Below, piece by piece: positions 3,783 through 6,220 of a stretch of 64,000 nucleotides of DNA. The stretch's first letter is position 1. Every line of letters begins with the position of its first letter. Source of the DNA: a bacterium (GTDB taxonomy: Bacteria; UBA8248); NCBI GenBank assembly GCA_965203325.1, contig OZ241875.1, forward strand, positions 3,264,001-3,328,000. The letters are read 5' to 3'. A program made the position numbers and the translations under genes. The notes under the pieces are model-generated. The model saw only the letters and a program-made list of their open reading frames with translations, made no database searches and was not told the DNA's origin.

Positions 3783-4680
3783 AACCCCCCCTACCCCCCC
3801 TTGTCAGGGGGGCAAGAAAGATCAACTCCCCCCTTGAGGGTCTGGCCGCCCGATGAAAGAGCAATCAACTCGGTAAACCCGACCGACGAGAAAAGAATCA
3901 ACTCCCCCCTTGAGGGTTTTTGCCAATCAACAAGAGAGGGGATCAACTCCCCCCTTGAGGGGGAGTCGAAGAGCTAAGGGCGTAAGCCCGAAAGCGATTC
4001 GGTGGGGGGACATGCCACAGAAAAACTCCCCCCACCGGTTCAGCCTTCGCACAAATCGCTCGGCTTCACCGACTCCCCCTCAAGGGGGGAGTTGATCCTG
4101 TTCTTCTCGGTTGCCAATGCCCCTCAAGGGGGGAGTTGATCCTTGTTTCGCGGGGTTTTTTCATACCCCCCTGTCAAGGGGGGGTAGGGGGGGTTGGTTT
4201 TTATGCAGGGTGCGAGCGGGGAGAAGGGTTTGACGACCAAGCAGAGAAGGGATTCACTCCCCCCTTGAGGGAGTTGTCACCTCCTGCCGAAGTGAAAGAA
4301 TCAACTTCCCCCTTGAGGATTCTTGCCGTCCGACGAGAGAAGGGGTCAACTCCCCCCTTGAGGGGGAGTCGGTGAGGTGAGGGGGGTTTTGCCCGAAACC
4401 GAACCGGTGGGGGGAGCTTTTAATTTAGAATCGTCCCCCCACCACATCGGCCTTCGCACAAACCGCTCGGCCTCTGTGACTCCCCCTCAAGGGGGGAGTT
4501 GATCCTTTTCTTCTCGGTTGCCAATGCCCCTCAAGGGGGGAGTTGACCCTTTTTTGCTCGGTTGAAAAATGACCCTCAAAAGAGGAGTTGATCCTTTTTT
4601 GCTCGGTTGAAAAATAACCCTCAAAAGAGGAGTTGATCCTCCCTTTTTCGTCGGTTGCCAATAACCCTCAAGAGGGAGTA
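3783..4680. repeat. Palindromic mosaic repeat field (REPIN/BIME-like), left of the DUF559 gene
   Basis: Core hairpin ACTCCCCC-CTTGA-GGGGGAGT. Inverted doublets at ~3943-4095 and ~4347-4502, tandem ~44-nt half-units, and a second palindrome (CCCCCCTTGTCAGGGGGG) in opposite orientations at ~3784 and ~4166. Confidence 0.93.
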
Positions 4681-4722
4681 AAAATCTTGCCCAGGGATAA
4701 GGGATAAACCGAGGAAGAAACG

Positions 4723-5106
4723 ATGAAACCTCGCCGTTCCAGCCGGACCACCCGCCGATACGCAGGAAAAACCCTGCAAAACGCCCAAAGCCTCCGCGGC
4801 TCGCGCACCGACGCGGAGGGCATCCTCTGGTATCACCTGCGCGCGAGAGGGCTCGACGGCCGCAAATTCCGCCGCCAGCAGCCCATCGGCCCCTACATCG
4901 CGGATTTCGCCTGCATGTCGGAGAAACTGCTCGTCGAACTCGACGGCGGCGGCCACGCCGAGCGCGAAGCCGAAGACCGCGAACGCGACGAGTATTTGCA
5001 CCGCAGCGGCTATCGCGTACTGCGCTTCTGGAACACGGAAGTCTTCGAGAATCTCCACGGCGTTCTGGAGAAGATCTCCGAAGCGATGGAGGAGAAACCC
5101 GGGTGA
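4723..5106 (+). CDS. DUF559 / Vsr-like endonuclease domain protein (127 aa)
   Basis: LR...TDAE..LW..LR, KFRRQQPIGPYIADF, LLVELDGGGH, DRERDEYL and GYRVLRFWN match the DUF559 pattern. GAGGA RBS-like sequence upstream. Confidence 0.92.
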   Translation: MKPRRSSRTTRRYAGKTLQNAQSLRGSRTDAEGILWYHLRARGLDGRKFRRQQPIGPYIADFACMSEKLLVELDGGGHAEREAEDRERDEYLHRSGYRVLRFWNTEVFENLHGVLEKISEAMEEKPG

Positions 5107-5115
5107 GTGAGGTGG

Positions 5116-6220
5116 GATTCACTCTCCTCTTGAGGATCATCCCTTCACGCGCGAAATATACAATCAACTCCACCCTTGAGGTTCAAGCCCGACCAAGCAG
5201 AAAGGGGATTCACTCCCCCCTTGAGGATTCTTGCCAATCAACAAGAGAGGGGATCAACTCCCCCCTTGAGGGTTCTTGCCGCCCGACGAGAGAAGGGATC
5301 AACTCCCCCCTTGAGGGGGAGTCACAGAGGCCGAGCGGTTTATGCGAAGGCCGATGTGGTGGGGGGAGTTTTTCTGTGGCATGTCCCCCCACCGGCGCGA
5401 CTTCGGGCTTCGCCCTCGTCTTGCCGTCTGGCTTTCCCCTCGGGAAGCCAGACCCTCAAGGGGGGAGTTGATCCGTTTTTTCGTCGGTTGCCAATGGCCC
5501 TCGAAAGGAGAGTTGATTGTTCTTCTCCCTGGTCGGTAATTCCTCCTTCATCGGGGCTGTTGAAAACCCCCCTTGAGGTTCAAGCCCGACCGATGAGAGA
5601 AGGGGTCACCTCCTGCCGAAGTGAAAGAATCAACTCCCCCTTGAGGGTTCTTGCCGCCCGACGAGAGAGCAATTCACTCCCCCCTTGAGAGCCATCCCTT
5701 CACGCGCGAGATATACAATCAACTCCCCTCTTGAGAGCCAAGCCAGACCAAGCAGAGAAGGGATCAACTCCCCCTTGAGGGTTCTTGCCGCCCGACGAGA
5801 GAGCAATTCACTCCCCTCTTGAGGGCCATCCCTTCACGCGCGAGATATACAATCAACTCCACCCTTGAGAGCCAAGCCCGACCAAGCAGAGAAGGGATCA
5901 ACTCCCCCCTTGAGGGTCGGGCCGCCCGATGAGAGAAGGGATCAACTCGGTAAACCCGACCGACGAGAAAAGGATCAACTCCCCCCTTGAGGGGGAGTCG
6001 GCAAGACGAGGGCGAAGCCCGAAGTCGCGCCGGTGGGGGGAGTTTTTCTGTGGCATGTCCCCCCACCACATCGGCCTTCGCATAAACCGCTCGGCCTCTG
6101 TGACTCCCCCTCAAGGGGGGAGTTGATCCTTTTCTCGTCGGTCGGGTTTGACTATAAAGGGGGAAAGTTGACCCGTTTTTTCGTCGGTTGCCAATGACCC
6201 TCAAGGGGGGAGTTGATCCT
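5116..6220. repeat. Palindromic mosaic repeat field, right of the DUF559 gene
   Basis: Tandem ~44-46-nt units (TCAACTCCCCCCTTGAG plus a recurring linker) and inverted doublets at ~5299-5471 and ~5976-6126. Confidence 0.93.

Follow-up and report, generated by a model that had tools for sequence, protein, structure and literature searches.

A stand-alone DUF559 nuclease gene and the hairpin repeats around it: comparison suggests full and gene-less forms of one cassette family

Does a nuclease gene that stands alone in a dense field of palindromic repeats belong with these repeats, and what might its product do to them? The question is raised by a locus in the 64,000-nucleotide stretch of bacterial DNA analysed here (the window: positions 3,264,001 to 3,328,000 of contig OZ241875.1 in assembly GCA_965203325.1, lineage UBA8248), where a gene for a protein of the DUF559 family is surrounded by one family of repeats. 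The source genome, G000 in our comparisons (the window being G000:C1:3264001-3328000), is a single contig of 4.39 Mb with a G+C content of 60%. An earlier note on this DNA, made from the sequence alone, had proposed that the nuclease propagates or maintains the repeats, as RAYT transposases do for the repeat doublets called REPINs. We compared the locus with a panel of 41 genomes, the genus part of which comprised 17 repeat-bearing and six repeat-free genomes, and with a distant-relative set consisting of the best 80 DUF559 relatives from public genomes.

We know of no role assigned to DUF559, a large family with a solved structure. The product of the window's gene matched the Pfam profile PF04480 (E=1.3e-39, residues 17-122 against profile positions 3-108 of 109) and the PDB entry 3hrl, an 'endonuclease-like protein' (E=2.2e-28), and none of the open reading frames (ORFs) adjoining 4723-5106 showed a methylase gene or an obvious operon partner; the earlier description of a stand-alone 127-aa DUF559 protein of Vsr-like fold, without methylase or operon partner, was thus borne out. 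Judged by the ratio of non-synonymous to synonymous substitution (dN/dS 0.17-0.48 in 21 orthologue pairs), the gene is kept under maintenance. Across seven DUF559 orthologues 61 columns are invariant, among them E72, D74 and H78, with D61 invariant too, and some of the invariant residues may correspond to the catalytic residues of Vsr.

The repeat field was mapped by scanning the window and the whole of G000 for the motif ACTCCCCCCTTGAGG with up to two mismatches. The window contains 38 matches against 0.14 expected, a number that none of 100 shuffles reached; all of them lie below position 16000, and 25 fall within 3825-6213. The whole genome holds 224 matches in 111 clusters, with 2.9% of its sequence no more than 500 bp from a match, and 38 of the 224 are inside the 11 kb around the DUF559 gene. 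Repeat density at the gene is the maximum for the genome, since the densest 2.4-kb stretch is the DUF559 locus itself, with 25 matches against 10 and 6 in the runners-up. As the earlier note had described, repeats stand on both sides of the gene, in opposite directions and close to its start and stop: the nearest ones upstream are in '-' orientation, with a degenerate unit that stops about 40 bp before the ATG, and the nearest ones downstream are in '+' orientation, starting at 5121, 15 bp past the stop.

The unit of this family is not the lone palindromic hairpin for which the earlier note had taken it, but a core of about 147 bp with five hairpins. Its order is a hairpin H (ACTCCCCCC-TTGA-GGGGGAGT), an arm hairpin of ~35 nt, the G-run GGTGGGGGG, a loop of ~20 nt, the C-run CCCCCCACC, a second arm and the hairpin H'. 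We found 65 central hairpins in G000, with a central loop of 18-22 nt in 58 of them, and listed 34 complete cores. The 4-bp stem that closes the arm is perfectly complementary in 106 of 111 arms, spread over 11 variants, where shuffling the partners gave 17.1 on average and never more than 30, and the inner arm stem covaries between AGCC/GGCT (22 arms) and GGCC/GGCC (21 arms). Judged by this covariation, the structure of the core is under constraint. As a single strand, the gene-less core at 14370-14516 has a predicted fold of -62.5 kcal/mol (z=-9.4). Folding of the whole core into one long hairpin would be very stable, yet we prefer local arm hairpins because the arm stems covary. Relative to the arms, the loop that separates GGTGGGGGG from CCCCCCACC can point either way (4001-4036 versus 5358-5393 and 6032-6067), as though it flipped between inverted stems. 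A scan of 3500-15000 against Rfam gave nothing near the gathering score and weak microRNA-like hairpin matches only, and the core is therefore not a known RNA family.

Eight cores lie in the window. They are accompanied by half-hairpin units, 45 bp long and arranged in arrays, and by a higher-order repeat of 134 bp (2.3 copies, 94% identity). The family recurs without the gene at 9460-10080, 11292-13212 and 14310-14577, as had been reported, the second of these places holding in addition an IS1182-family insertion that had been missed. Three-block modules, here called O (C7-TA-C7-loop-G6, with the loop TTGTCA in the window copies), were found at 3785-3819, 4163-4193, 11294 and 13194, and inverted O modules form the boundaries of some composites. 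Around the gene, the dense field grew locally, through tandem duplication of the 45-bp half-hairpin units and nesting of element within element; tandem duplication of the units was shown by Tandem Repeats Finder (TRF). A nested-insertion model for the 45-bp arrays was ruled out by their asymmetric unit counts. In some cores, copies in G000 and G012 included, a further nested small element, the 26-nt mini-hairpin TCTGGCTTTCCCCTCGGGAAGCCAGA, stands in for a portion of the terminal hairpin, and a 22-bp tandem repeat, CCGACCGATGAGGGAGGGTTTG (2.5 copies, 96% matches), occupies the right edge of the field at 6247-6300.

Comparison with orthologues ties the gene to the core itself. Close orthologues with 63-80% identity were present in the genus genomes G010, G022, G016 and G002 (two copies) and in G032, from another family, and all six of these loci, in five further genomes and at no fewer than three chromosomal sites, are flanked by the hairpin family. 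In G016 (locus L005), in the second G002 copy (L022) and in G032, the gene is set into a core precisely at the point between GGTGGGGGG and CCCCCCCACC (CCCCCC(C)ACC). The neighbourhood of a gene for a 342-aa protein is common to G000, G010, G022 and one G002 copy (in G000 it is 5 kb away and in opposite orientation), and this neighbour is 93-95% identical between genomes versus 73-80% for DUF559. The G016 and G002 cassettes have 93% DNA identity and sit in neighbouring but different intergenic spacers with unlike outer flanks; G016 carries a gene-less core where G002 has a gene-bearing one, and the site of the G016 cassette is empty in G005 and G019 (61-65 bp) and occupied by a gene-less core in G000 and G012. 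From these cassettes and the empty and gene-less sites we conclude that the cassette moves as an H-to-H' unit, of which the cores are the gene-less form. Since the same gene occupies the central loop in sister genomes, in another family and in sponge-type metagenome-assembled genomes (MAGs) of many phyla, the cores are gene-less copies of the DUF559 cassette, and comparison thus shows that gene and repeats are full and gene-less forms of one cassette family. Gene copies usually number one per genome, with two in G002, as against many gene-less doublets. The spacer between two conserved convergent genes measures 61-976 bp in 12 genus genomes and about 3.7 kb in G010; small repeats of five or more families, unrelated to one another, are present in it in varying combinations.

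The pairing extends well beyond the genus. Among the 15 closest public relatives (58-64% identity), which are sponge-type MAGs labelled Nitrospira, Entotheonella, Arenicellales, Binatia, Latescibacterota, Opitutales and others, matches to H lie within ~160 nt of the gene ends in 14, and all four landmarks are present in order in six. For the larger set, we scored inverted matches of at least 14 nt between the two 160-nt flanks of each gene and used shifted positions at the same loci as controls. Such matches were found at 55 of 78 testable loci and at none of 147 controls (54 of 77 if locus L109 of genome G052 is left out), and they were at least 18 nt long in 44. This locus, from a genome flagged as unpublished, also enters the counts for the closest relatives, the multi-copy hairpins, the TMECO consensus and the two tests of hairpin against protein relatedness, and none of our claims depends on it alone. 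The relatives' hairpins have one style, with a C/T-run, a TTG-type loop and a G/A-run, and the lineage-specific versions are multi-copy: five genomes of the Bradyrhizobium/Xanthobacteraceae/Tardiphaga group contain 23-65 each, and five others (four alphaproteobacteria and one Alcanivorax) contain 2-22. They are spaced as pairs of ~100-150 bp and as gene-sized pairs of ~410-460 bp, with no matches for reversed-pattern controls. Homologues were thus found to carry flanking hairpins, as the earlier note had anticipated.

A second clade of the nuclease points the same way. Clade 2 is ~38% identical to clade 1, the DUF559 of G000 type, and all five of its loci (L012, L142, L143, L144 and L011, in G012, G020, G010, G002 and G021) are flanked by O-type motifs with the third block nearest the gene, so that, by comparison, each DUF559 clade has its own hairpin. 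G000 itself is without clade 2 DUF559, yet has 243 matches to the O motif. The view that gene and repeats belong together was therefore upheld by the flanks of all six close orthologues, by the gene's place in the central loop, by the distant relatives and by the five clade 2 loci. The cassette has also been found within genes: at 13 of 17 closest-relative loci the gene lies in an open frame of at least 356 aa, the frames being short at the other four, and 11 of the 13 long frames as well as that of G032 encode Methylase_S (HsdS) domains that flank an in-frame DUF559. An N-terminal nucleotidyltransferase domain is present in nine of the 11 Methylase_S frames and in G032.

On balance, and with confidence barely above even, we favour the reading that gene and repeats make up one selfish element family whose nuclease acts on the ends, with a second layer at the level of the genus that involves an IS1182-family insertion sequence (IS). 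In the full form, the DUF559 gene lies between two inverted structured ends, each made of H, the ~35-nt arm hairpin and then, beside the gene, the G-run or the C-run; the ~147-bp cores, with both ends joined by the ~20-nt loop, are non-autonomous gene-less derivatives. The nuclease may recognise its own folded ends, as a hairpin, a cruciform or a hairpin with a third strand, and nick there; such a nick could set off the copying or movement of the cassette, and act in trans on the gene-less copies as well, as RAYT does for REPINs. In the genus layer, cores have been built into composites with IS1182-type ends, and an IS1182-family transposase also inserts into hairpin loops. Spread to ~65 cores per genome was probably due largely to this DDE transposase, without need for DUF559.

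Insertion sequences that target REP hairpins, such as IS1397 and ISKpn1, are known, and the IS1182-family element resembles them: it has 17 matches in G000, and all 16 full copies lie in H- or O-type hairpin loops, nine of them with flanking 9-mers identical at eight or more of nine positions, loop included. The window copy is flanked by a perfect 9-bp duplication, CCCTCAAGG, at 11578-11586 and 13105-13113. In a 20-kb region, all six repeat-bearing G000 spots coincide with breaks in the alignment to other genomes.

Several observations weigh against a family driven by its nuclease. Nine of the 17 repeat-bearing genus genomes are without stand-alone DUF559 and three more have clade 2 only, and hairpin counts without the gene are high (G014 115, G018 101, G004 82, G013 69, G007 54). 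Copy number was highest with the clade 1 gene (99-151 hairpins per genome, n=5, versus 16-122 in the other repeat-bearing genomes, n=12), which lends the earlier proposal of propagation or maintenance by the nuclease some support, against which the nine genomes without the gene must be set; the contrast may moreover be phylogenetic, because the genus genomes are kin and not independent samples. The IS1182-family transposase is absent from all six repeat-free genus genomes, and a match to the element is present in every repeat-bearing genome but three fragmented assemblies. The earlier note had named repeats that follow a RAYT or IS200-type gene as a finding that would speak against it; no link to a RAYT emerged, but the presence and absence of the repeats do track this DDE transposase, which goes part of the way towards such a finding. 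An inverted-repeat motif of IS type, pointing inward, lies no more than 120 nt from 17 of the 34 complete cores, on both sides in six, and is present in 23 of 68 core flanks against about one expected, with one in the wrong orientation. At two spots that were worked out, many genomes are empty, including the gene-bearing G022 (both spots) and G002 (the one resolved), and the filled sites at two loci are common to a subclade that includes gene-less genomes. Filled and empty sites, to which the earlier note had looked for signs of movement, do exist, but the two polymorphic insertions resolved at base level are both composites with IS-like ends. Where the cassette occurs in other phyla and no close IS accompanies it, the genomes contain just 1-19 hairpins. 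Finally, the expectation that hairpins co-vary with the protein tree had a mixed outcome: hairpin and protein distances were uncorrelated in a crude Mantel test (r=-0.08, equalled or exceeded in 870 of 999 permutations), and a class-based test gave a small difference (protein identity 0.593 within versus 0.563 between hairpin classes) that none of 2000 shuffles reached.

It is against these points that other explanations have to be weighed. The repeats could be miniature IS derivatives moved by the IS1182-family transposase alone, with DUF559 as a passive passenger, an account that we consider unlikely while granting it real weight. It draws on the agreement between IS and repeat presence across the 41 genomes, on the inward IS-type motifs at half of the complete cores, on one flank type that matches ~45 nt of the IS left end, on the occurrence of the same composites at different loci, on the two polymorphic insertions and on the low hairpin numbers in cassette genomes without the IS. 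What it leaves unexplained is that gene and hairpin go together as a rule in lineages in which we did not find this IS, that clade 2 has its own hairpin type and that a gene-bearing cassette moved from H to H' without IS ends; none of the eight window cores has an inward IS-type motif in its flanks, the sole full IS ends there being those of the IS that splits one core, and G016, with its 142 hairpins, has no more of the IS than a 77-aa fragment. Clean target duplications, moreover, were not clear at either of the two resolved composite insertions, and the flanks of composites are often inverted hairpins. The IS as parent of the core was ruled out, because core and gene occur together in phyla that gave no match to this IS.

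We regard it as distinctly improbable that DUF559 is a homing-type selfish nuclease that entered pre-existing hairpins, belonging to the host or independent, which it neither makes nor spreads. The gene does lie within a core that is ordinary apart from this insert in its central loop, gene-less cores occupy either that spacer or an adjacent one, genomes without the gene still have the repeats, and a table row in PMC3424549 places a group I intron homing endonuclease in the Vsr/DUF559 group; but there are ~65 potential targets per genome for one or two gene copies, the cassette moved with arms and hairpins rather than as the gene alone, and the exact hairpin sequence is kept across phyla where the protein is only ~60% identical. 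Under another account, DUF559 functions within the specificity protein of type I restriction-modification systems, with the stand-alone gene as a detached relic and the hairpins as linker-coding DNA that became repetitive independently. This would explain the Methylase_S and nucleotidyltransferase domains in the long frames; we judge it very unlikely in view of the free-standing intergenic copies with the same ends, the short frames at four of 17 loci, the gene-less doublets in intergenic DNA, and hairpin DNA that is conserved past coding need and whose arm stems covary. Mere coincidence in a spacer that serves as a dumping ground for small repeats has in its favour that genus spacers gather many unrelated repeat families and that the field was enlarged by tandem duplication; it is scarcely credible when all six orthologues are flanked, at three or more sites, in a setting where 2.9% of the genome lies near a match, and when relatives and shifted controls differ as they do. 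Least probable of all, to the point of being negligible, is service of the family by a RAYT (Y1 HUH transposase) elsewhere in the genome: G000 does contain two Y1_Tnp-like ORFs, at 1659119-1659649 (+) and 1662405-1662947 (-), but no H-core match lies within 3 kb of either. RAYT as partner of the H-core family was ruled out by the different palindrome in the flanks of these ORFs, GGGACAGG...CCTGTCCCTAC. One of the two ORFs has an internal TAG, and a 20-mer of their palindrome has 154 matches on both strands with up to two mismatches.

Returning to a selfish family with its own nuclease, the closest known parallel is the REPIN/RAYT system or REPtron (PMC3116915, PMC2817692, PMC3337134 and bioRxiv 10.1101/2022.05.22.493013, each drawn on in part). 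There, as here, the gene is usually single-copy and flanked by cognate palindromes, many gene-less inverted doublets are dispersed in the genome, and the hairpin sequence is lineage-specific with conserved structure. In contrast to that system, the enzyme here is a Vsr-fold PD-(D/E)XK nuclease instead of an HUH Y1 transposase, members of the genus can be rich in the repeats while lacking the gene, so that co-occurrence of family and gene fails in nine of 17 genomes, and the cassette often sits in frame inside hsdS. Likeness to miniature elements with a parent IS lies in the IS-type inverted repeats at about half of the cores, with the difference that the core itself is not IS-derived. In the part of PMC3424549 drawn on here, group 58 joins VSR, DUF559 and DUF2726 (PDB entries 1cw0, 3hrl and 3r3p); the nuclease thus shares its fold family with Vsr and with a Vsr-like homing endonuclease, which gives selfish homing use a precedent, and it differs from these in lacking both a methylase partner and a setting in an intron or intein, in being bounded by structured inverted repeats and in having gene-less copies. 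'DUF559 domain-containing protein' is enriched among the predicted inversion targets of Milman et al. 2023 (PMC9881135), with an odds ratio of 14.3, and this fits because the genes are bracketed by inverted repeats; the central loop in its two orientations is likewise reminiscent of programmed inversion, whereas neither the cassette nor the repeat family is described in the portion of that paper that we cite.

A further likeness is to the BoxC, PIT and TMECO motifs, which have a C-rich block, a loop, a G-rich block, a short linker and a second G-rich block, an order shared by the three-block O modules of the window; the H-core differs in that its linker is a 35-nt arm hairpin, which puts the third block 35 nt off. 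The published TMECO consensus occurs within ~220 nt of the gene at 13 of 80 DUF559 loci (64.5 kb) versus five occurrences in the other 339 kb, and the strict form, CCCTCNCCC-N3-6-GGGNGAGGG-N3-GGGNGAGGG, has no match in the window. BoxC, PIT and triplex motifs have been catalogued since the 1990s, to our knowledge with no enzyme attached to them, and in E. coli there may be a link between ycjD and BoxC. Mobility genes were not found near triplex motifs in the section of Holder et al. 2015 (PMC4666352) used here. Among the titles and abstract starts of the open-licence papers and preprints covered here we found no description of a pairing between DUF559 and hairpins, an absence that is no proof of novelty but is in line with the earlier statement that no characterised system of this kind was known.

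These parallels lead us to a wider proposal, which we hold as tentative and rather short of even likelihood: DUF559 nucleases may be the enzymes of a widespread, undescribed class of bacterial mobile DNA, acting on inverted ends that form hairpins or triplexes; this class would have its own hairpin in each clade, give rise to REPIN-like gene-less doublets including BoxC, PIT and TMECO, and be able to live in frame within genes such as hsdS without breaking them. A clade-by-clade pairing of DUF559 with hairpins would give both the family and the BoxC, PIT and triplex motifs a testable function. To this G000 adds a gene-less form that has expanded to ~65 copies, evidence that the repeats can outlive the gene, and a case in which three players interact: the nuclease cassette, the copies derived from it, and a DDE insertion sequence that enters these hairpins too and perhaps ferries them. 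The nuclease might also serve as a structure-specific tool, provided that it cleaves structured DNA and does so at a defined hairpin. The features of the locus and the hsdS-embedded cassettes are listed in Table 1.

Table 1. Coordinates of the nuclease gene, repeat elements and insertion sequence (positions in the window, except in the last row)
Feature	Position	Strand	Remarks
Composite element 1	3783..4204	.	sequence and motif scans
O module C7-TA-C7-TTGTCA-G6 (element 1)	3785-3819		
Half-hairpin units (element 1)	at 3825 and 3901		
Core (element 1)	3946-4092		central hairpin 4001-4036
Unit, then inverted O module (element 1)	4116-4136, 4163-4193		
Composite element 2	4256..4690	.	units 4256, 4304; core 4349-4499, central hairpin 4406-4443
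Array of 45-bp units (element 2)	4484-4676	-	TRF period 45, 4.3 copies, 85% matches; end ~40 bp before gene
DUF559 (Vsr-fold) nuclease gene	4723..5106	+	127 aa, intact, own start codon; purine-rich stretch GAGGAAG just upstream
Composite element 3	5121..5468	.	'+' 45-bp array 5121-5317 into core 5302-5468, central hairpin 5358-5393
26-nt mini-hairpin TCTGGCTTTCCCCTCGGGAAGCCAGA	5427-5452		nested in right hairpin of element 3
Solo IS-type inverted-repeat-like motif GGGGCTGTTGAAAAC	5555..5578	+	abuts half hairpin; inverted-repeat motif scan
Composite element 4	5629..6221	.	core 5978-6123, central hairpin 6032-6067; '-' units to 6221
134-bp higher-order repeat in '+' units (element 4)	5629-5936	+	2.3 copies, 94% matches
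Two gene-less cores and flanking units	9460..10080	.	cores 9506-9656, 9887-10033
O-bounded composite	11292..13212	.	core from 11444 split by insertion sequence; sequence, motif scans
IS1182-family insertion sequence	11587..13104	+	1518 bp; inside right hairpin loop of core
IS1182-family transposase	11611-13062	+	DUF772 and DDE_Tnp_1_6 domains (Pfam)
Gene-less core, unit left, O-type hairpin right	14310..14577	.	core 14370-14516, central hairpin 14426-14462
hsdS-embedded cassettes, hairpins read through in frame	L020 (G032) 5224-7530	-	also L043, L047, L048, L051, L052, L056, L123-L127

Other genes and regions of the window were noted in passing. A putative lipoprotein of 664 aa is encoded at 6601-8595 (-), with no Pfam match and no counterpart at E<1e-20 in the sister syntenic loci, and the conserved 342-aa protein mentioned above, at 10132-11160 (-), has no Pfam match either. 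Two adjacent tyrosine integrase genes lie at 14724-17149, the first with Phage_integrase and Arm-DNA-bind_3 domains (Pfam) and the second assigned by sequence only. They are followed by 11 kb with 46-53% G+C (17000-28000), against 60% in the genome, which is probably an integrated island, and further low-GC blocks occur at 44-51 kb and 52-60 kb of the window.

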